From contig JACPHY010000005.1 of the NCBI GenBank assembly GCA_016188355.1, forward strand, positions 7,389 to 71,388: DNA of 64,000 bases. Reading direction: 5' to 3'. The position numbers and the translations under genes were made by a program. Of the stretch, positions 2,141-60,398 are shown piece by piece (position 1 is the stretch's first letter; every line of letters begins with the position of its first letter). Origin of the DNA: Candidatus Uhrbacteria bacterium (GTDB taxonomy: Bacteria; Patescibacteriota; Patescibacteriia; JACPHY01). The notes beneath the pieces were generated by a model. The model did no database searches. It saw only the letters and a list, made by a program, of their open reading frames with translations, and was not told the DNA's origin.

Positions 2141-2515
2141 TTACCGGAATCGATCGATGGACGCGATCGCCGCCGCGAGCACCTGCTCTGATGACGGCGC
2201 TGCGTCAATGACCGCGCACTGCTGCATCCCGATCCGCTCCGCGACCATGCGAAATCGTTCACGGTAGTACGTGAGGTCGGCCACGGTATGATACCGCTCG
2301 CTGAGGTCCTTCCCCGCCTGCATCAAGCGCGCTCGAGATACGTCCACCGGTGCATCCAGGATGAGGTAGTGCTCGCCCGCAATCGGCTGCAGCAGGAGAT
2401 CGTCCGTCATCTTGGTGGGAAGACCCCGATCCGCGACATCGTACCCGCGCGCACGGAGTGCTGCGACGAGCGTTGATTTTCCGGTGCCGTCATTCCCATC
2501 GACCACAATCTTCAT
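2141..2515 (-). CDS. small P-loop NTPase, nucleotide-kinase-like (124 aa)
   Basis: An internal start MKIVVDGNDGTGKST (Walker A) was chosen within ORF 2141..2701. Its ATG overlaps the rdgB stop (ATGA). HYLILDAP looks like a Walker B. Only the kinase core is present; substrate unknown. Confidence 0.5.
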   Translation of the reverse strand: MKIVVDGNDGTGKSTLVAALRARGYDVADRGLPTKMTDDLLLQPIAGEHYLILDAPVDVSRARLMQAGKDLSERYHTVADLTYYRERFRMVAERIGMQQCAVIDAAPSSEQVLAAAIASIDRFR

Positions 2516-3243
2516 CAGACACCCGTGCGCAATTGCTTCCCGAGCCACACCGTGAACTCCTGGAGCGCCTGCTTGCGGTGACTGAGGAGATTCTTCCGCA
2601 CGGAATCGATCTCTGCCCAGGTCTTCCCGAACGATCGCTCGCTCGCGAAGATGGGATCGTAGCCGAAGCCGTTCGTGCCCCGCGTCTCCGTGGTGATCCA
2701 TCCGCTCACCTCACCATGGAACCGCGCAACCATATTGCCATCGGTGTCCGCCACCACGAGAAGGATCACGAATTTCGCAGCGCGGTGGGCAGGGTCGATA
2801 TGCGACATGAGCTCGAGGACGCGCGCATTGTTCGCGGCGTCCATTGCTTCACGCGGCCGCTCGCTGGGACGATACGTTCGCACGCGCCGTCGTGACGCGT
2901 CGAGATCGTAGTCACTGAACCGCGCCGACCACGGCCCCGGCAACCCCCCGAGCGCCGGGATCACGATCCCCGAATCCTCGCTGATCGTCATCAGTTGCGC
3001 CGCACGAGTGGCAGCGTTCGCCTCCATCGAGGACAACCCGGAGCATTGGTACAGCTCACGCACGGTATTCCCGACATGGAGTCCGTACGCGCGCGCCTTG
3101 ATCGCCGCATTTTCCGCGAAGGTCGTCCCCGTCTCTTCGGGATCGATGGGGTCGGTGACCACGAGCGGAATTTGGAGCGGACCGAGCACGCTCGCAAGCT
3201 CCCGCACCTTGTACTGATTCGTCGTACCCAGATAGAACTTCAT
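2515..3243 (-). CDS. rdgB: RdgB/Ham1 non-canonical purine NTP pyrophosphatase (dITP/XTP)
   Basis: MKFYLGTTNQYKVRE...FGYDPIF...SFAE...KNLLSHR Ham1 motifs. The start was placed at the M directly after the upstream stop (3240). Confidence 0.85.
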   Translation of the reverse strand: MKFYLGTTNQYKVRELASVLGPLQIPLVVTDPIDPEETGTTFAENAAIKARAYGLHVGNTVRELYQCSGLSSMEANAATRAAQLMTISEDSGIVIPALGGLPGPWSARFSDYDLDASRRRVRTYRPSERPREAMDAANNARVLELMSHIDPAHRAAKFVILLVVADTDGNMVARFHGEVSGWITTETRGTNGFGYDPIFASERSFGKTWAEIDSVRKNLLSHRKQALQEFTVWLGKQLRTGV

Positions 3244-4250
3244 CGCACACCTCCGGACATCAGCGAGGCCAGCAGATTCCACTTCCGAACGACATCATCG
3301 CTGCTCCCTCCGGATCGCCAGACATCTTTGTCGAGCATGCCGAGATCGAGGTGCCGGAAACGTCCACAGTCCGGGGAGAGTTCGCCATACACGAGCCCGC
3401 CGTCCTCCGCGATGAACATGCAGAGATCGTAGAACACGATGTCCTTGGTGGCGAGAAACTCCGCGATCGTCTTCGCCGCGAGGAACGCCGTCCGCCGCGC
3501 CTTCGCCACATCGATGAACCAATCCGCGATTTGGTCGGGAAGCATCTGGTCCGCGACTCGGCTGGCCCACGGCAGGAGCTGCTGCCAGTACGCGCGGTCG
3601 CGGACCGCATTGATCCGTTTCTCCGTCGCATTCGCCCCTTCCAGCGCATCCACGATTTGTACGGTCACCTGTTCTCCGCGCTTCTGATCCCTGAGCGGAT
3701 TCCGCCAGTCGAACCGGACGACCATTTCCGGAAATGCGCCTTCCGCGGTGATTGGCATGCCCGCGTAGAACGGATGACTCTCGCGCACGCGCGTGTCCGC
3801 GAGCCCGATGCACCCATGCTTCGTGGTTCCCGTGAGGAACTGCTTCACGATGATCTCGATGGGCGGCGCCTTCGGAAGCGCCGCGATCGCTGCGGTGTCG
3901 AGATCCGGCGGGACGAAGGCGGGAAGTCCATACTTCCGAAACTCCGCCGCATGCGGCATGACGAGATCCGCGAGCACCCATTGGTCCGTCACCTCGCGAT
4001 ACGCGTGACGGATGCCCACCGCACGAAGCACGTCCACGAAGATGGACGATGCCCACAGCCGCGGCACCTCGGATCCCGGGACCTGCGCGCAACGGTTTTC
4101 GGTGAATGAGTAGATCGACGGCAGGAATTTGATGACCACCTGCCCATTCCCGAGATACCGTACCTCCTTACTCTCGCCCCGGATCACCAAGGGGAGCCCC
4201 TGGAAATCCGCTTCGGTGAAGCCCCGAAACCATCCGTCGGTCGACACCAT
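3240..4250 (-). CDS. purC: SAICAR synthetase family protein (PurC-like, long form with insertion)
   Basis: RGESKEVRYL (GKAK-like), IVKQFLTGTTKH and IVFYDLCMFIAEDGGLVYGELSPDCGRF are collinear with PurC motifs. A GGAGGG SD lies between the purA stop and its ATG. Confidence 0.65.
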   Translation of the reverse strand: MVSTDGWFRGFTEADFQGLPLVIRGESKEVRYLGNGQVVIKFLPSIYSFTENRCAQVPGSEVPRLWASSIFVDVLRAVGIRHAYREVTDQWVLADLVMPHAAEFRKYGLPAFVPPDLDTAAIAALPKAPPIEIIVKQFLTGTTKHGCIGLADTRVRESHPFYAGMPITAEGAFPEMVVRFDWRNPLRDQKRGEQVTVQIVDALEGANATEKRINAVRDRAYWQQLLPWASRVADQMLPDQIADWFIDVAKARRTAFLAAKTIAEFLATKDIVFYDLCMFIAEDGGLVYGELSPDCGRFRHLDLGMLDKDVWRSGGSSDDVVRKWNLLASLMSGGVR

Positions 4251-4259
4251 GCGTCCCTC

Positions 4260-5561
4260 CTACGGCACGATCGTGCACGGAATGAATGCGTCCCGATCCG
4301 CACCGATGCCGATACCGGAAACGGGTACCCCCGCGCTCTTTGCGATGTGCTCGAGATAGCGCACTGCGGTATCCGGAAGCGCATCGATCGTCCGCGCCTC
4401 GGTCACGTCACCCTCCCACCCCGCATGCGCACGCAGGTGGGGTCGCGCGCCCCGAAGCACCGTACCCGTGAGCGCGCCTGGATTCGTCTCCACGACGCCG
4501 TCGAACACGTATCCATCGCACGTGGCGAGCGCACCGAAGTTGGAGAGGACATCGAGTTTCGTCACGACGAGTTCCGTCACGCCACCCACGCGACAGGCGT
4601 GTCGCAGCGCAACGGTGTCGAGCCAGCCGCAACGACGCGGCCGCCCGGTCGTCGTGCCGTACTCGTGGCCGCGCTCCCGCAACTGCTCACCCAGCACATC
4701 GGCCAGCTCGGTCGGAAACGGACCTCCCCCCACGCGCGTTGCATATGCCTTCGTCACGCCGACGACGCGCTCGAACTGATACACCCCGAAGGACATGCTC
4801 ACGCCCGCGGCAGTGCAGGAGGACGACGTCGTATACGGACGCGATCCGTGATACGTGTCGAGGAGCACACCCTGCGCTCCCTCGAACACCACCTCCGCAT
4901 CATGATCGATGAGACCCCACACCATCTTTCGGGTGTCCTGGAGGTACGGTGCGAATCGTTTCCCGTGCTCCGCACACCACGCGATCGTCGCATCGAGCGA
5001 ATAGGGGTCGAGCTCCATGTCGGGTACCGTCGCGGGTCCCCCATGCTGGCGAGCGATCGCGCAGAGCTCCGCGAAGTACCCACCTTCGGTAAGTACCGCG
5101 CGGATATCCGCCGGTACCCGGAGGTCGCCCAGACTGAGGCTGCGTCGCAACCAGAAATCGCTCGCCGCAGGACCGATGCCGCGCTTCGTCGTACCGATTG
5201 CATTCCCTCCGGCCGACGTTTCCCGCGCCGCATCGATGATGCGGTGGATCGGGAGCACGATCGGCGCGGAGTGATCGAGGAATACCTTCGCCCCACATCG
5301 TTCCGCGATCGCGAGCTCCGCCGCACCCACATCGCAATCGAAGAGGACGCCCGGACCCACGAAGTTCTCCATCCCCGCACGAACGATGCCGCTCGGGAGG
5401 AGATGGAGCGCCGTCTTCTGGCCGCCCACCACAAGGGTATGTCCCGCATTCGCGCCGCCCTGGTATCGAACGACCGCCTGCGCGGTGGCCGCGTATCGAT
5501 CGACGACCTTTCCTTTTCCTTCATCGCCCCACTGCGCGCCGACCACGACCGTTGTTCCCAT
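4260..5561 (-). CDS. purA: adenylosuccinate synthetase
   Basis: N-terminal VVVGAQWGDEGKGK...GGANAGHT...TTKRGIGP motifs; 433 aa. Confidence 0.92.
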   Translation of the reverse strand: MGTTVVVGAQWGDEGKGKVVDRYAATAQAVVRYQGGANAGHTLVVGGQKTALHLLPSGIVRAGMENFVGPGVLFDCDVGAAELAIAERCGAKVFLDHSAPIVLPIHRIIDAARETSAGGNAIGTTKRGIGPAASDFWLRRSLSLGDLRVPADIRAVLTEGGYFAELCAIARQHGGPATVPDMELDPYSLDATIAWCAEHGKRFAPYLQDTRKMVWGLIDHDAEVVFEGAQGVLLDTYHGSRPYTTSSSCTAAGVSMSFGVYQFERVVGVTKAYATRVGGGPFPTELADVLGEQLRERGHEYGTTTGRPRRCGWLDTVALRHACRVGGVTELVVTKLDVLSNFGALATCDGYVFDGVVETNPGALTGTVLRGARPHLRAHAGWEGDVTEARTIDALPDTAVRYLEHIAKSAGVPVSGIGIGADRDAFIPCTIVP

Positions 5562-5564
5562 GAT

Positions 5565-6710
5565 TCAATGCCCCTTGTTCTGGTGATTCCCTTCCGTGAG
5601 GAAGGTACGGAGAATGGTGTCATGCGAACCCACGAAACGATCAGGGGATCCCACTGCATCCATGAGCAACGCTCGGGAAACGATCGCCGCATGGCCCTCA
5701 CGCGTTACTCCCCACCGCTGCACGGTGGACGCGATATGCGCGAACGTGCACTCGGGAATCTCCGCATGAAATACGTGACTCGCATACATGCCGGGATACT
5801 GTCGCCCTTCGAGCGCGAAGGAGCGCCACGGCTGGAGACGCTCCTCGATGGCCGCAACCACGCTCCTATCCGCAAGCTCCTCCCGGAGTTCGCGGCAAAG
5901 CGCGGGCCGCGGAAGCTCACTCGCATCCACCGAACCTCCGAAGCAGCAGTATCGCCCCCGACATGCCGCGACGGGATGATTCTCCCCCTTCACCTGCACG
6001 AGGAACTGGTCGCCGCTCCAAATGATCGCTACCGCTCCTACTGCTCCACATGCCGCCGCTGCGCGCTGCACCACCGTATCCGGATGCGCAACGTGCAGTT
6101 GCGCCAGCAGCGCGCTCATCGGCATGAGGTGTGCGGGGTCTTCGAGCGCCGCGCGGTTCGTCACGAGGAGCGTCGAACTGGCGAGGAGACGATCAATGAT
6201 TGTGAGTCCGTTGGCCGCGATGGTCGCGCCTGTTTCCACGCAATCGAGCACCAGATCCGCGATGCCGGGTGCGTATGCCTCGGTCGCTCCACGCGTCGAC
6301 AGGATGATGTGCGCGAGTCCGCGATCAAACGCCCACCGCGACGCAATCCCCTCGTATTCCGTAGCGATGACGAGCGGGCGCGGCGGCAGATGCGCGAGGA
6401 GATCACTCCCCTGCGCTGCTGCAACCACGAGCTCCACCGGGTTCGTCCCGAAGTCAAAGAGCGGCACCACAGAATCGTATGCCGCATCCTCCACGCAATC
6501 CCGCCCCGTCACGCCAAGCACCGAAAACCCATGCGCCACAAGCTGTGGAATCGCACGCGCCTTGAACAGCGTCGCCGTCCATGCAGGATCGCTCACCTGG
6601 AGATGGAGCGATCGCGGATTGGATTGCTGGAACTGTATCCCTGCATTCGCCAGCACTTCCCGTACGCCTTCGAAGAGTCGCCCCTTCGGGAGCGCCAATG
6701 ATACGGCCAT
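5565..6710 (-). CDS. hisG: ATP phosphoribosyltransferase (short HisG) fused to a C-terminal Nudix hydrolase domain
   Basis: N-terminus LALPKGRL...DLVLDCVETGATIAANGL matches the HisG core. The C-terminal ~160 aa carries a Nudix box GGSVDASELPRPALCRELREELAD. A 3-nt gap separates it from purA. Confidence 0.7.
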   Translation of the reverse strand: MAVSLALPKGRLFEGVREVLANAGIQFQQSNPRSLHLQVSDPAWTATLFKARAIPQLVAHGFSVLGVTGRDCVEDAAYDSVVPLFDFGTNPVELVVAAAQGSDLLAHLPPRPLVIATEYEGIASRWAFDRGLAHIILSTRGATEAYAPGIADLVLDCVETGATIAANGLTIIDRLLASSTLLVTNRAALEDPAHLMPMSALLAQLHVAHPDTVVQRAAAACGAVGAVAIIWSGDQFLVQVKGENHPVAACRGRYCCFGGSVDASELPRPALCRELREELADRSVVAAIEERLQPWRSFALEGRQYPGMYASHVFHAEIPECTFAHIASTVQRWGVTREGHAAIVSRALLMDAVGSPDRFVGSHDTILRTFLTEGNHQNKGH

Positions 6711-6778: not shown

Positions 6779-6808
6779 ACTGTACGCAATACAAACAAAT
6801 ATGTCAAT
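6779..6808 (-). promoter_or_regulatory. candidate sigma70 promoter of the hisG-Nudix/pur operon (minus strand: TTGACA-N18-TACAGT)
   Basis: On the minus strand the sequence reads cTATTGACAtatttgtttgtattgcgTACAGT, about 70 nt upstream of the ATG at 6710. Confidence 0.4.
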
Positions 6809-6861: not shown

Positions 6862-7968
6862 TCAGGAGCGATCTGACCATGTTCGATCGATCCGAATACC
6901 CATGCGCTCCATATCCGCGAGGAGCGGCTCAGGATCCACGAAATTCCCCATGGCGAACAGTCCCGATTGATGCTGCGCGAGGTACTGGCGAATGCACGCA
7001 ATCACCGGGATCGCGGTGAACGCGAACGGATCCGCATGCTCTGCCCGAATCCGAAGACGACGTGCCCGACCCTGCACTTGTCCTTCCGCGTCGACGAGAA
7101 ACACGATGCCGGGAGCTCCGCGCAGGAATCGATTCGCACAACGAACGAACCATCGAGCAAAGGTGCGGCGCCCCCATCCAGGACGAATGCGATACGCGAT
7201 CATCGCGATGGGCATGAGTGCCATGAGCAGAAGATCGGTCGGCCCCCCGAATCCACCAACGACCGTCATCACCTTACGGAGACCAAGCGATTCGGGAACC
7301 GTGCGAAGCTCGGGCATGTCGATGGGATAGCATCGCTGCGTTCCGAATGGCGCACCAAAATCCACGAGATGCGCATCGCGGTACGTCGACGCGCGCCAAT
7401 GCCCATCCGCAAAAATTTCTGGAAGTCCTGCCGCGAGCATGTCCACAATCTCCACCGCAGACTCTTCCGTACGGAATCGCGCACGCATGGCCATGGCTAC
7501 CACCGCGGCATCATATCGGTCGAAGGAGGATGCAGCAGCACGCACGAATGCGGCCGGCAAACCCGGATGGAATCCCGCCTGCACAATGAAACATCGGCCC
7601 GCGTCACGCACCTCCGCTGCACGCGAGGCGAGTACATGCTGCGTGCTGCAATCCACATAATCCACGCCCATGCGGATACACGCGTCGGCAAGTCGAGGAA
7701 TCGCGGCGGTCGCCGTGGTGACCTGCACCACCAATGTGTAGCCACGCAGCACCGGGTCGAGATCATCATGGGCGAGGTCGACCACACACCCCGCCACCCG
7801 ATCCGACGCAAAAGCACGAAGCTGCGCCACCATCGCGGCCACTCGTTCCTGCGAACGGCCCGCAACCGTCACCCGCACATTCGTCTCGCGGAGTAGCAAC
7901 TCCGCAATGAGTGCGCCAACGCCACCCGTACCGCCCACCACCAGGCACCGAGGAACCGATGTCTCCAT
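6862..7968 (-). CDS. saccharopine dehydrogenase-like NAD(P)-binding protein
   Basis: N-terminal Rossmann CLVVGGTGGVGALIAELLL and overall Sacchrp_dh-like layout. Confidence 0.7.
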   Translation of the reverse strand: METSVPRCLVVGGTGGVGALIAELLLRETNVRVTVAGRSQERVAAMVAQLRAFASDRVAGCVVDLAHDDLDPVLRGYTLVVQVTTATAAIPRLADACIRMGVDYVDCSTQHVLASRAAEVRDAGRCFIVQAGFHPGLPAAFVRAAASSFDRYDAAVVAMAMRARFRTEESAVEIVDMLAAGLPEIFADGHWRASTYRDAHLVDFGAPFGTQRCYPIDMPELRTVPESLGLRKVMTVVGGFGGPTDLLLMALMPIAMIAYRIRPGWGRRTFARWFVRCANRFLRGAPGIVFLVDAEGQVQGRARRLRIRAEHADPFAFTAIPVIACIRQYLAQHQSGLFAMGNFVDPEPLLADMERMGIRIDRTWSDRS

Positions 7969-48921: not shown

Positions 48922-49968
48922 TCAGGGCAGCCGCCGCATCTGCCAATGGATCGTTCCGCCGTGGCGGAACGGAACGACGCCGCCGCACTCCTCGGGGACC
49001 ACCCAATCGGTGCACGTGCACTCAATGCATCCGGTGTTGCGCTCGAGGCCGTAGAACTGCGCACCGAAACGCGAGGTGAAGTCCTCGAGACGTTCGAGCA
49101 CCTGATCCTCCTCGAATATCTCCACGAGCGTCTCTATGGCGACCGGCGCGGAGAACACCCCCGCCGCACATCCCGCGCCCTCCTTCATTGCACGCGGATG
49201 CGGCGCACTATCGGATCCGAAGAAGAATCGTGGATCGCCGCTCGTCATCATTTGCCGAACTGCGCGCCGATCCGCTTCTTCTTTCGCAATCGGTTTGCAA
49301 TAGAGATGCGCATCGCAAATATCGCCGAACACGTTGAACACCTGCGCCCGCGTGATGCATGCATGGTGCACGGTGATCGATGCGGCAACCGTTTTCGGCA
49401 GCGATGCAACGCACGCGACCGCCGCAGCGGTCGAGATGTGCTCGAAGACGATCCGAAGCCGCGGAAACTCGAACGCAAGGCGCTGGAGCGTCGGCAGAAA
49501 TGCCTCCTCCGCAAGCGCCGCGTTGATACCGGGCACCTCGCCGTGCACGCAGAGCACCATGCCGGACTCTTCCATCTGCCGGAGCACCGGACCAAGCGCG
49601 AAGATGTCCCGGACGCCCGCATCCGAGTTGGTGGTCACCCCGAGCGGATAGTACTTCGCTGCGACGACTCCCGCACGATGCGCCTCCTCGATGTCCAACG
49701 GCGTGGTTGCATCCGTGAGGAACAGCGTGAGGAGCGCGGTGAATGGCTCCGACAGTCCCTGCTCGACGCGCGCCTGCCGAATTGCTTCGGCGTATCGTTC
49801 CGCATCCTCCGCCGTACGCACTTCGCGCGGCTTGAGGTTCGGCATGGCGAGCACGCGCGCGAACTGCCGCACATAGTACGGCAACACCGCGCCGAGCAGT
49901 GCTCCATTCCGGAGATGCGTATGGAAACAATCCGGCGCCCGAATGGTGAATGATGGGGTCATGATCAC
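48922..49968 (-). CDS. pyrC: dihydroorotase (E. coli PyrC type)
   Basis: DCFHTHLRNG...VMPNL...FEHISTA...FFGSDSAPH is collinear with class II dihydroorotase. Confidence 0.9.
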   Translation of the reverse strand: MIMTPSFTIRAPDCFHTHLRNGALLGAVLPYYVRQFARVLAMPNLKPREVRTAEDAERYAEAIRQARVEQGLSEPFTALLTLFLTDATTPLDIEEAHRAGVVAAKYYPLGVTTNSDAGVRDIFALGPVLRQMEESGMVLCVHGEVPGINAALAEEAFLPTLQRLAFEFPRLRIVFEHISTAAAVACVASLPKTVAASITVHHACITRAQVFNVFGDICDAHLYCKPIAKEEADRRAVRQMMTSGDPRFFFGSDSAPHPRAMKEGAGCAAGVFSAPVAIETLVEIFEEDQVLERLEDFTSRFGAQFYGLERNTGCIECTCTDWVVPEECGGVVPFRHGGTIHWQMRRLP

Positions 49969-51041
49969 ACCTCCTTCACGGTATCCGCTGCCGCGCGTGC
50001 TGCGGGAGTGCGGCGCGGCTCAGGATTGACATTGCTCCGTGCTGCAGCCCGCACCTGCGCAGCAAAAGAACATTTCCCCGCGGCGTACGTAATGGTCGAC
50101 TGCACACGCCACGGCCGCAACATGGCGATCGATCCCAGCGCGACGGAATCTGCACCTGCATCGACGAGCACGTCCACATCTCGCGGGGCGAGAATGCCAC
50201 CACCCGCGTGGATGGGTTTCGTGATGCCCACCGCTCGCGCATCCCGCACCCACTCCGCCACGAGGGGCAGGAGCGGGCGACCGGACAAGCCGCCATCGGC
50301 CGGGATGCCGCGCGCCCGGAGCGGCGACTGTGTGGATCCGAAGAGCCGCAACCAAGGAATCCGATCCGGCAACCGCCCCCAGGGAATCGTGTTCGACGCG
50401 CACAGTGCATCACATGCCGGATGCTCCGCGACGCGCGCCGCATGCGCGACGGGAAACTCCACACTGAGCTTCGGCACGAGCGGCACGCCGAGCACTCCGA
50501 CCACATCCAACACGTCATGGATTTCCGTCACGAGCGCTTCCCATTCCTCGGACCGGTGCTCCACATTTGGACAGGAGAAGTTCAACTGGATTCCGACCGA
50601 CGCGCGCAGTCCGGATTGATGGCGCTGGAACATGGTCACCAGCCCCCGGTACTCTGCCGCACGTTCCGTGCGTGTTGCGCCCACCGCCATCCAGGATAGA
50701 AAGAACGGCGATGTCCGACGAAACCACACCCCGCGCTCGCACAGCGCCTCGAAGCCGATATTCGTGAGCCCCACCGCATTGAGCACCACACCCGTCAACG
50801 GTCGGATCGCCACGCAATCTGGAAAGAGCTGCAGCGGTGCGAGCGTCTGCGGATGCGACGGCATGTTGCCGGCTCGCGGTTCGAGCGTCACCGTTTTCGC
50901 CACGAACGTCATGCCCGAGAAATCGAACCCAGGAACGAGCCGGAGCCACCGATGAAACGGCCACCCCTCTCCATGAAACCCCTGCACTCCGGACGCCCCC
51001 CACACCTGCCCGAAGTCGATGCCACGCAGCACCGTCATCAC
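49965..51041 (-). CDS. pyrD: dihydroorotate dehydrogenase family protein (class 1-like, Cys active site)
   Basis: AKTVTLEPRAGN...LNAVGLTNIG...NFSCPNV. Its stop overlaps the pyrC start (ATGA). Confidence 0.75.
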   Translation of the reverse strand: MMTVLRGIDFGQVWGASGVQGFHGEGWPFHRWLRLVPGFDFSGMTFVAKTVTLEPRAGNMPSHPQTLAPLQLFPDCVAIRPLTGVVLNAVGLTNIGFEALCERGVWFRRTSPFFLSWMAVGATRTERAAEYRGLVTMFQRHQSGLRASVGIQLNFSCPNVEHRSEEWEALVTEIHDVLDVVGVLGVPLVPKLSVEFPVAHAARVAEHPACDALCASNTIPWGRLPDRIPWLRLFGSTQSPLRARGIPADGGLSGRPLLPLVAEWVRDARAVGITKPIHAGGGILAPRDVDVLVDAGADSVALGSIAMLRPWRVQSTITYAAGKCSFAAQVRAAARSNVNPEPRRTPAARAAADTVKEV

Positions 51042-60308: not shown

Positions 60309-60398
60309 CAAACGTAGCAAGGGCGCATGGAGTCTGTCAATGGACCGGAATGCGCAACCACCACACCCTTGACGCGCACCGCGGTCGTTTGCTACGTT
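60309..60398. promoter_or_regulatory. divergent control region: inverted copies of CAAACGTAGCAAG overlapping a TTGACG-N18-TACGTT promoter
   Basis: Copy 1 is cCAAACGTAGCAAGGGCGC (60309-60326). Copy 2 is the reverse complement GTTTGCTACGTTGcgagcgc (60377-60396) and overlaps the -10 of the plus-strand promoter for the gene at 60493. Confidence 0.5.

Follow-up and report, generated by a model that had tools for sequence, protein, structure and literature searches.

A conserved gene module pairing HisG with a PurC-fold protein family, seen from an operon of Candidatus Uhrbacteria

We wondered what an operon that begins with a HisG-Nudix fusion and continues with purine-type genes might do in the genome of a Candidatus Uhrbacteria bacterium, a member of the Patescibacteria, or Candidate Phyla Radiation (CPR). 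The operon lies at positions 6710..2141 on the minus strand of a 64,000-nucleotide stretch of contig JACPHY010000005.1 (assembly GCA_016188355.1); this whole 64-kb stretch is called the window below. We found that the operon is a lineage-specific version of a conserved gene module, the core of which consists of a short HisG, a PurC-like protein (here PurCL), a Ham1 paralog and a P-loop protein, either the small miniK form or a full-size form, "K190". Many module genomes also encode a tri-domain HisA-HisI-HisE protein, and PurA is often added in the CPR. The module occurs widely, is tightly conserved and appears to be undescribed: the literature that could be searched gave no account of it. There is fair support for the view, which we infer from comparative data, that the module branches off the early histidine pathway and makes no histidine.

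The operon and the module across genomes

The initial annotation had proposed a tightly coupled operon of five genes, and all five open reading frames (ORFs) were confirmed on the minus strand:

6710..5565, minus strand: HisG-Nudix fusion, 381 amino acids (aa)
5561..4260, minus strand: purA, 433 aa
4250..3240, minus strand: PurC-like gene (PurCL), 336 aa
3243..2515, minus strand: Ham1-type gene, 242 aa, start MKFYLG
2515..2141, minus strand: miniK, a 124-aa P-loop protein with the P-loop GNDGTGKST

Spacers of 3 nt and 9 nt separate the first three genes in turn; PurCL and Ham1 overlap at ATGA, and Ham1 and miniK share 1 nt at TGATG. The gene calls agree in two independent assemblies of the same organism (433, 336, 242 and 124 aa for the four downstream genes), and a GTG at 3282, given as the Ham1 start in the ORF list, is probably not the real one. 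The five genes thus form a single compact operon. The fusion at its head is no assembly artefact, because an identical 381-aa protein is present in both the NCBI and the Logan assemblies and an 86%-identical ortholog of 381 aa stands at the head of the same operon in a second metagenome-assembled genome (MAG).

A pattern scan for two PurCL motifs, run over one genome per species of the Genome Taxonomy Database (GTDB), returned 58 loci, to which protein look-ups added 8. The ORFs of these loci were labelled by phmmer, with the window proteins and two recurrent neighbour families as seeds. Within the CPR, the hosts of PurCL are Uhr-, Falkow-, Vogel- and Saccharibacteria, Paceibacterota and Peribacteria. 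Beyond the CPR they are Woesearchaeota, Polyangiaceae, Myxococcales, Sandaracinaceae, Bdellovibrionota, Oligoflexia, Planctomycetia, Acidobacteriota and a Herpetosiphon MAG, and more remote members of the family, at 25-31% identity, were seen in Bradyrhizobium, Devosia, Anaeromicropila and a strain of Nostocales. No Actinomycetota were found among the pattern-scan loci.

Neighbours were counted in the 21 core-family loci that have at least 3 kb on both sides. Ham1 stood beside PurCL in 18 of these and a kinase in 16, followed by HisG (13/21), HisA together with HisI (8/21) and PurA (4/21). The most frequent complete order was [PurA]-HisA·HisI·HisE-HisG-PurCL-Ham1-miniK, seen for instance in Parcubacteria (L017), Saccharibacteria (L019), Uhrbacteria (L028 and L009) and in Polyangiaceae and an unclassified bacterium (L021/L022). 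The same genes are found in another order in two Myxococcales loci (L024, L025), and the order PurCL-HisG-HisAIE in L054, L059, L061 and L063, three of which are from Woesearchaeota; distant Woesearchaeota members of the PurCL family likewise adjoin HisG and HisAIE. Single-linkage clustering of the neighbouring ORFs gave no recurrent family beyond those named here, and several apparent clusters were rejected as antisense artefacts of high-GC DNA.

The components are also joined to each other in single proteins. We found miniK-HisG fusions in at least 10 clusters at 50% identity, and PurCL-Ham1-miniK as single ORFs in one Bdellovibrionota and one Polyangiaceae genome (L013 7890-9935, 681 aa; L014 7962-9944, 660 aa). 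Other loci encode a PurCL-HisG fusion (L063 883-2502, 539 aa), a PurCL-Ham1 fusion (L032 from 7971, 460 aa) and a miniK-Ham1 fusion (L029 from 7, 369 aa).

Several loci depart from this pattern. A variant module in Uhrbacteria (L065 4150-8630) and Peribacteria (L066 3155-10995) has HisIE (or MazG-MazG-HisI), HisG and HisA, together with a second, far more canonical SAICAR_synt protein (PF01259, E 1e-24 to 1e-30) and an FmdA/AmdA-type amidase, which is fused to PurCL in L066; the latter locus also encodes a long PurA and a full-size kinase. This content suggests additional chemistry at the carboxamide. In L004 3330-9224, on a 1.5-Mb metagenomic contig, two PurA genes flank the module, PurA-miniK being divergent from HisG-PurCL-Ham1-PurA. 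In L025 (Myxococcales) a PfkB-family gene of the adenosine/ribose kinase type, at 2935-4041, overlaps the start of HisA-I-E by 4 nt. Distant relatives of PurCL that keep a D-x-C signature occur in settings resembling biosynthetic clusters (L048, L053, L062 and Bradyrhizobium L044-L051): L053 has two PurCL copies, a major facilitator superfamily (MFS) transporter, an acyltransferase-family protein and a thymidylate-kinase (TMPK)-like kinase, L048 a radical-SAM enzyme and a TMPK-like kinase, and L062 a HIT-like protein. Some of the hosts of these distant relatives are cultured strains.

The proteins of the module

The module proteins share folds and several motifs with canonical PurC, RdgB/ITPA and thymidylate kinase. 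PurCL itself has no match in Pfam or NCBIfam, PF01259 and the NCBIfam PurC models included. A profile of its family does match archaeal PurC structures (E 2.4e-10), and a fold search of the Protein Data Bank (PDB) with its AlphaFold model (predicted local distance difference test, pLDDT, 89.3) gave at its top solely synthetases of phosphoribosylaminoimidazole-succinocarboxamide (SAICAR), with a TM-score of 0.81 on the target. The family, with the motifs GESKEVRY, RFDWRNP, YDLC, SPDCGRFRH and LDKDVWR, comprises at least 433 clusters at 90% identity in a search of 5.8 billion proteins, mostly of about 290 aa and mostly from Patescibacteria; 36 diverse members have a mean identity of 50% and 69 invariant positions. 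Where the initial annotation saw a long, 336-aa PurC, the SAICAR-synthetase fold stands and the long PurC does not: the surplus length of the window protein is an insertion of about 40 aa (residues ~187-230), predicted to be helical and confined to the subclade of its nearest relatives. By profile and fold PurCL is a homolog of PurC, and it makes up a separate family overlooked by Pfam and NCBIfam.

We asked which PurC active-site residues this family keeps. In human PAICS, according to a quantum-chemical study, Lys191 helps to bind aspartate and Glu193 and Asp207 lie on the ATP side, Glu97 and Asp137 hold Mg ions at the carboxylate of carboxyaminoimidazole ribonucleotide (CAIR), and the contacts that hold the ribotide and aspartate come from Asp212/Arg215 and Lys228/Arg232 (PMC9376930). 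When PurCL is aligned to P. horikoshii PurC by a hidden Markov model (HMM), Cys277, Phe279 and Gly289 fall on the positions of Lys191, Glu193 and Asp207. The E. coli PurC counterparts of these three PAICS residues, with roles partly from the E. coli structure, are K177, E179 and D191; a 59-sequence alignment and an hmmalign alignment with E. coli PurC likewise place a Cys at Lys177 and have no counterpart of Glu179 or Asp191. In 58/58 PurCL members the first of the three positions is Cys, the second is Phe or missing and the third is Gly or missing. By comparison, the equivalents of Glu97 (E132), Asp212 (D294), Arg215 (R297), Lys228 (K308) and Arg232 (R312) are invariant in PurCL. These alignments suggest that PurCL is without the aspartate and Mg-ATP residues of PurC and has kept those that bind the ribotide.

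Profile matches and intact motifs bear out that the first gene of the operon encodes a HisG fused to a Nudix domain:

6111..6710, minus strand: HisG domain, short form, residues 1 to ~200 (PF01634, E 7.6e-28)
5565..6062, minus strand: Nudix domain, residues ~217-373, plus tail and stop (PF00293, 21.1 bits, exactly the Pfam cutoff)

The HisG domain scores 132 bits with the TIGR00070 equivalog model, whose cutoff is 75.8, is matched by ATP phosphoribosyltransferases of the PDB at E 2.8e-22, and has an intact loop DCVETGATIAANGL for phosphoribosyl pyrophosphate (PRPP) and no HisG_C regulatory domain. Within the C-terminal 170 residues, which give the Nudix match, the box GSVDASELPRPALCRELREEL (G-x5-E-x7-RELREEL) is intact when set against GX5EX7REUXEEXGU, save for the final G, which is A. 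No curated Nudix subfamily matched this domain, the weak best matches being nucleoside triphosphate (NTP) pyrophosphatases (NudI, MutT). Its stand-alone relatives are of about 160 aa, with 35-42% identity and E values down to 5e-24, and PF00293 is found in one of them; the single genomic context retrieved for these relatives has no link to the module.

The fusion is rare. One cluster matched both halves in an exhaustive HMMER search of 1.84 billion representatives, and a word-based search gave a further HisG-Nudix protein, P0142 (E 4.5e-11 for its Nudix part), and a HisG with a degenerate Nudix-like tail (P0143). The Nudix parts of P0142 and P0143 have no BLAST similarity to that of the window, so the fusion arose more than once. 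The HisA-HisI-HisE gene is absent from all three fusion loci within the available flanks; those of L007 and L008 are short on the upstream side. Thermodynamics disfavours the HisG reaction, and HisE normally pulls it forward, so a fused Nudix domain of the NTP-pyrophosphatase type is a reasonable stand-in. The earlier suggestion that the Nudix domain replaces HisE remains a plausible prediction: this HisG acquired Nudix domains on at least two occasions, at loci devoid of the HisA-HisI-HisE gene present in many sister loci. The module Ham1 is another candidate for the same task. The exhaustive search also returned long HisG fusions (409-993 aa), which were set aside as ordinary fusions of the histidine pathway (HisD, HisF/H, HisZ, IGPD, HisC) and uninformative for the module. 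A set of Chloroflexi-type proteins (P0148-P0176, 465-484 aa) with two tandem HisG domains is unrelated to the module.

The fourth gene belongs to the Ham1/RdgB family (PF01725, E 9e-43), with a borderline pass of TIGR00042 (146.3 bits against 145.35), and keeps all catalytic ITPase motifs: TxNxxK, EETG, DSG, FGYDP and SHR. Module copies of Ham1 form a distinct clade marked by an insertion of about 22 aa common to all of them, with a further insertion of about 25 aa in the Uhrbacteria type. In one Uhrbacteria locus (L009) an ordinary second Ham1 lies 8 kb from the module copy; no second copy lies within the window. The family behind the earlier label rdgB is correct; a module-specific paralog with its own insertions is probably more than a housekeeping enzyme of ITP/XTP sanitation.

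The 124-aa protein at the end of the operon had been called a kinase, and the P-loop kinase fold is indeed there, in the form of a thymidylate-kinase-like core that is often fused to HisG. Its structure model, for which the prediction drew on fusion-protein sequences, has a pLDDT of 96.6. The closest structures are thymidylate kinases, followed by adenylate and UMP/CMP kinases; against TMPKs the TM-score is 0.75 on the query and 0.49 on the target, about half of the TMPK being covered. The sequence fails the TIGR00041 thymidylate kinase model (23 bits against a cutoff of 83) and has only weak dTMP-kinase matches. What remains of a thymidylate kinase in the sequence is the P-loop, the LID region and the helices at the C-terminus. 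Missing, by alignment to E. coli Tmk, are the DRx motif and the central ~70 residues that form the nucleoside monophosphate (NMP)-binding subdomain, which binds the phosphoryl acceptor. Because this subdomain is absent and the protein is repeatedly fused to HisG or to PurCL-Ham1, miniK probably works docked on a partner.

PurA is canonical (PF00709, E 2.4e-129; NF002223, 424 bits against a cutoff of 402), with the motifs GDEGKGK, NAGHT, TTGRPRRCGW and TKLD. Its identity as PurZ, the 2-aminoadenine enzyme, was rejected (101 bits against a cutoff of 300).

Early histidine enzymes and a possible branch

We next asked whether the module could belong to a histidine pathway. That no other histidine gene lies near the fusion held true in a tblastn search of the window with HisA-I-E, HisC/B, imidazoleglycerol-phosphate dehydratase (IGPD), HisH, HisF and HisD seeds; HisE, HisI and HisA were not found there (best E 0.25). 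Across the 58 loci, phmmer and tblastn searches with Vampirovibrionales seeds found no IGPD, HisH, HisF, HisD or HisC/HisB that is part of the module. The late histidine seeds matched only a normal his operon in L052, which has no relation to the module, and, in L057, an amidotransferase resembling HisH. HisZ was found in cis at none of the loci, and PurB (E. coli seed) adjoined the module in none of the loci searched. With HisH/F/B/C/D beside the module in 0/58 loci, histidine synthesis itself is unlikely.

In the tri-domain protein the HisA part scores best with TIGR00007, far above HisF and yet below the model's own cutoff, and the HisIE model is over its cutoff in 3/4 of the fusions tested. 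Complete his operons of Vampirovibrionales use the same HisA-HisI-HisE architecture, so the protein is a working histidine enzyme, recruited to the module. In two such operons (L068 4414-11537 and L069 3116-11534, Vampirovibrionales-type) the tri-domain protein shares 55-58% identity with the CPR copies and is accompanied by a HisC-HisB(N) fusion, and an operon of this type is a likely evolutionary source of the module gene. No HisA-I-E of the MAG studied here was among the best 120 matches to the closest Uhrbacteria fusion, a search that an ortholog of less than about 55% identity would escape; a 78%-identical match belongs to another assembly. Several Falkowbacteria and other loci are also without HisA-I-E in cis, and their PurCL is 50-60% identical to that of loci having it, which argues for the same substrate, with HisI and HisA supplied in trans.

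The complete module encodes a PurC-fold enzyme and, besides it, just the steps from ATP and PRPP to phosphoribulosylformimino-aminoimidazole-carboxamide ribotide (PRFAR). The ligand of PurC is an aminoimidazole-carboxylate ribotide, and a ribotide of the aminoimidazole-carboxamide kind is part of PRFAR; the simplest proposal is therefore that PurCL takes PRFAR, its phosphoribosyl isomer ProFAR, or phosphoribosyl-AMP (PR-AMP). These comparative data favour an earlier suggestion, made for the window alone, of a different nucleotide pathway derived from ATP and PRPP. In such a pathway HisG would join ATP (or dATP) to PRPP, and removal of pyrophosphate (PPi) would pull this step, a task of HisE in modules that have this domain and, in the window, most plausibly of the fused Nudix domain, with Ham1 as the alternative. 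The product would be carried on to PRFAR by HisI and HisA, and PurCL, in place of HisFH (imidazole-glycerol-phosphate synthase), would consume PRFAR or a neighbouring intermediate. For the window variant, HisI and HisA may be encoded elsewhere in the genome, or the variant may stop at, or use, an earlier intermediate. The resemblance to the early histidine pathway extends to the equivalog match of HisG and to the HisA-HisI-HisE of sister loci, which is of the his-operon type; the difference is that in the window HisE is at best replaced by the fused Nudix domain and HisI and HisA are not encoded.

A similar set of enzymes is known from nucleoside antibiotics. The clusters for pentostatin, coformycin and adechlorin have as their signature a pair of homologs of HisG and SAICAR synthetase, their early steps overlap histidine synthesis, and one cluster has its own HisA homolog (PMC12648386; PMC13055916; PMC11592144). 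In these Actinomycetota clusters PenA/AdeC are the HisG homologs, PenC/CofB/AdeA the SAICAR-synthetase homologs and AdeK the HisA homolog, and PenB/CofA are short-chain dehydrogenases/reductases (SDRs). The module is like them in pairing a HisG homolog with a SAICAR-synthetase-fold enzyme and in having dedicated early histidine enzymes (HisA there; HisI and HisE as well in the sister loci of the module), and unlike them in its hosts, which are CPR, DPANN and predatory bacteria as opposed to actinomycetes. In both cases early histidine enzymes occur without the later ones, which implies a branch point at the level of PRFAR. CofB is said by Ren et al., in 2020, to cyclise PRFAR to 8-ketocoformycin-5'-phosphate, ammonia and 4-phosphoerythronate, with ATP as a mere activator; an enzyme of this kind has no chemical need for ATP, which fits a PurCL family devoid of a catalytic Mg-ATP site. 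PurCL, which is too divergent for Pfam, would be an analogue of CofB and PenC. The Cns3 protein of Cordyceps militaris, needed for pentostatin, consists of an N-terminal nucleoside kinase and a C-terminal HisG (PMC8719641). This order, a P-loop nucleoside/nucleotide kinase followed by HisG, is that of the miniK-HisG fusions of the module; it differs from the window, where miniK and HisG are separate and at opposite ends of the operon and where miniK, at 124 aa, is without an acceptor-binding subdomain.

We hold with moderate confidence that the module is an early-histidine-pathway branch at or near PRFAR which follows the logic of CofB/PenC; a CofB-like action of PurCL is our hypothesis. Several points weigh against this. 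The pen and cof clusters contain nothing that corresponds to Ham1, miniK or PurA. No PenB/CofA-type reductase, transporter or exporter recurs with the module in related loci, so coformycin itself is not predicted. Saccharibacteria carry kinase-PurCL-Ham1 with no HisG nearby, and the lack of HisI and HisA in the 64 kb leaves the route to PRFAR incomplete as far as it is visible. An invariant Glu290 (E290) stands beside the missing Asp in PurCL, so the loss of ATP chemistry is something we infer from an alignment and not a demonstrated fact. Finally, the module is kept in genomes as small as about 1 Mb, which suggests core metabolism over a secondary metabolite.

Our confidence in any specific product is low. 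By analogy with CofB/PenC, PurCL might cyclise PRFAR to a ring-expanded (1,3-diazepine) nucleotide resembling inosine monophosphate (IMP). More speculatively, PurA, miniK and Ham1 could handle this IMP-like product alongside normal purines, much as related housekeeping enzymes handle IMP, AMP and ITP: PurA, with a PurB encoded elsewhere, could aminate it, miniK could phosphorylate the amino form, and Ham1 could destroy the unwanted triphosphate of the 6-oxo type. A tentative and possible extension is that CPR/DPANN episymbionts and predators (Myxococcota, Bdellovibrionota, Oligoflexia) make such a CofB-like ring-expanded purine nucleotide, processed by dedicated PurA, mini-kinase and Ham1 next to the ordinary traffic of IMP, AMP, ADP and ITP, as a coformycin-like deaminase inhibitor or an ATP-analogue antimetabolite against their hosts or prey. 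CPR and DPANN organisms are not known to synthesise histidine or purines, yet many of them retain a HisG, a HisA-I-E protein and a PurC-fold enzyme in a single module whose identity between phyla is 50-60%. If the product is of the coformycin type or another purine-derived nucleotide, chemistry like that of the nucleoside antibiotics would extend far beyond actinomycetes. The proposal, if true, would point to a specific candidate molecule for interactions of episymbionts or predators with their hosts, and would give functions to four uncharacterised families: PurCL, the truncated kinase, the Ham1 paralog and the HisG-Nudix fusion.

The main rival, unlikely in our judgement, is a purine interconversion shunt of primary metabolism from adenine to hypoxanthine, in which ATP and PRPP would again lead to PRFAR or ProFAR and PurCL would then yield IMP, formyl-AICAR (FAICAR) or aminoimidazole-carboxamide ribotide (AICAR). 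The enzyme would either link the carboxamide N to the formimino C in a ring or hydrolyse its substrate to FAICAR or AICAR, and IMP and an amino-sugar phosphate would be released. Ham1 (ITP to IMP), PurA (IMP to AMP) and the kinase would be arranged around IMP as a hub in organisms that scavenge nucleotides, and indeed Ham1, PurA and the NMP-kinase-like protein are all enzymes of the IMP/AMP level with canonical sequences. The shunt would suit a module that is kept in very small CPR/DPANN genomes and in predators on prey nucleic acids, that has no tailoring enzymes or exporters nearby, and whose HisAIE gene is overlapped by a PfkB-family gene in one Myxococcales locus. As a deamination, however, it is costly, taking PRPP and two PPi each time where simple deaminases would do; ATP to IMP to AMP in one operon is a futile cycle; and the HisA step would be superfluous, yet HisA always accompanies HisI. 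Nor would Myxococcota and Acidobacteriota be expected to keep dedicated copies despite their full purine and histidine pathways. If the shunt were true, it would fill a gap in the nucleotide-salvage models of reduced genomes.

It is rather improbable that the module instead encodes a split ATP-dependent ligase, in which PurCL would have no ATP site of its own and miniK or K190 would provide the phosphoryl transfer. The carboxylate or carboxamide of an aminoimidazole-type ribotide would be activated and then joined to an amine, giving a SAICAR-like conjugate and no ring-expanded base. PurCL and a TMPK-like kinase are the most persistent pairing and are kept together even in distant loci that resemble biosynthetic gene clusters, PurCL-Ham1-miniK fusions are known, and miniK is missing the subdomain for an acceptor of its own. 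A P-loop kinase acting in trans on a PurC fold is without precedent, though, and miniK-HisG fusions are at least as frequent as those of miniK with PurCL. The retained equivalents of K228 and R232, which bind aspartate carboxylates in PurC, speak for such a ligase, and the loss of the equivalent of the aspartate-binding Lys191 speaks against it.

Histidine biosynthesis with a non-orthologous HisE, its other genes elsewhere and the purine genes as mere housekeeping operon-mates, is very improbable: the HisG domain does pass its equivalog model and a Nudix enzyme is chemically capable of the HisE reaction, but this HisG subfamily is linked or fused to PurCL, Ham1 and miniK across at least 8 phyla and never to HisH/F/B/C/D, PurCL and Ham1 are no housekeeping orthologs, and CPR bacteria, to our knowledge, are generally without amino-acid biosynthesis.

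Signals and neighbouring genes

The following features flank the operon in the window:

6807..6779, minus strand: candidate sigma-70-like promoter, TTGACA-N17-TACAGT, ~70 nt upstream of the first start codon
2098..2128, minus strand: intrinsic-terminator-like hairpin, GGCCACCCCC/GGGGGUGGCC followed by GUUUU, with a G+C-rich 13-bp stem
6862..7968, minus strand: saccharopine-dehydrogenase-like NAD(P)-Rossmann protein, 368 aa (PF03435, E 1.2e-15), the upstream neighbour

A shared promoter with an 18-nt spacer had been assigned to the operon. The spacer is in fact 17 nt, and although the site matches 10/12 consensus positions, one such site was found in the region where 1.4 are expected by chance, so it is a candidate only; its position is suggestive. 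The strong terminator placed at 2103-2128 fared better. The hairpin there lies directly behind the final stop codon and is highly stable, with a folding energy of -29.4 kcal/mol and a z of -5.7 that 0/200 shuffles equalled; a terminator scan made no call at it, because just 4 U follow downstream.

The Rossmann gene is separated from the operon by the promoter-like site and probably stands outside the module. As an analogue of PenB/CofA it was rejected, since it adjoins the module in no related locus.

Elsewhere the window has rpoB/rpoC, ftsK and recA, genes for efflux transporters, PyrC- and PyrD-like genes and several unassigned ones. Antisense or Arg-rich ORFs that run opposite real genes and reach 784 aa (4347-6701 on the plus strand, 17349-19418 on the minus strand, and others) were set aside as artefacts of the G+C content of about 62%. 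Two large paralogues of 1018 and 1032 aa are encoded at 51691-54747 and 57281-60379, both on the minus strand, and are 32% identical over ~1000 residues (E 9e-121); the protein at 51691-54747, the one that was scanned, has no Pfam match. Two overlapping minus-strand genes at 48922-49968 and 49965-51041 encode, by eye, a dihydroorotase-like amidohydrolase and a divergent dihydroorotate-dehydrogenase-like TIM barrel (PF01180, E 4e-12, plus a weak His_biosynth match), a pair that looks like partial pyrimidine synthesis in a CPR genome.

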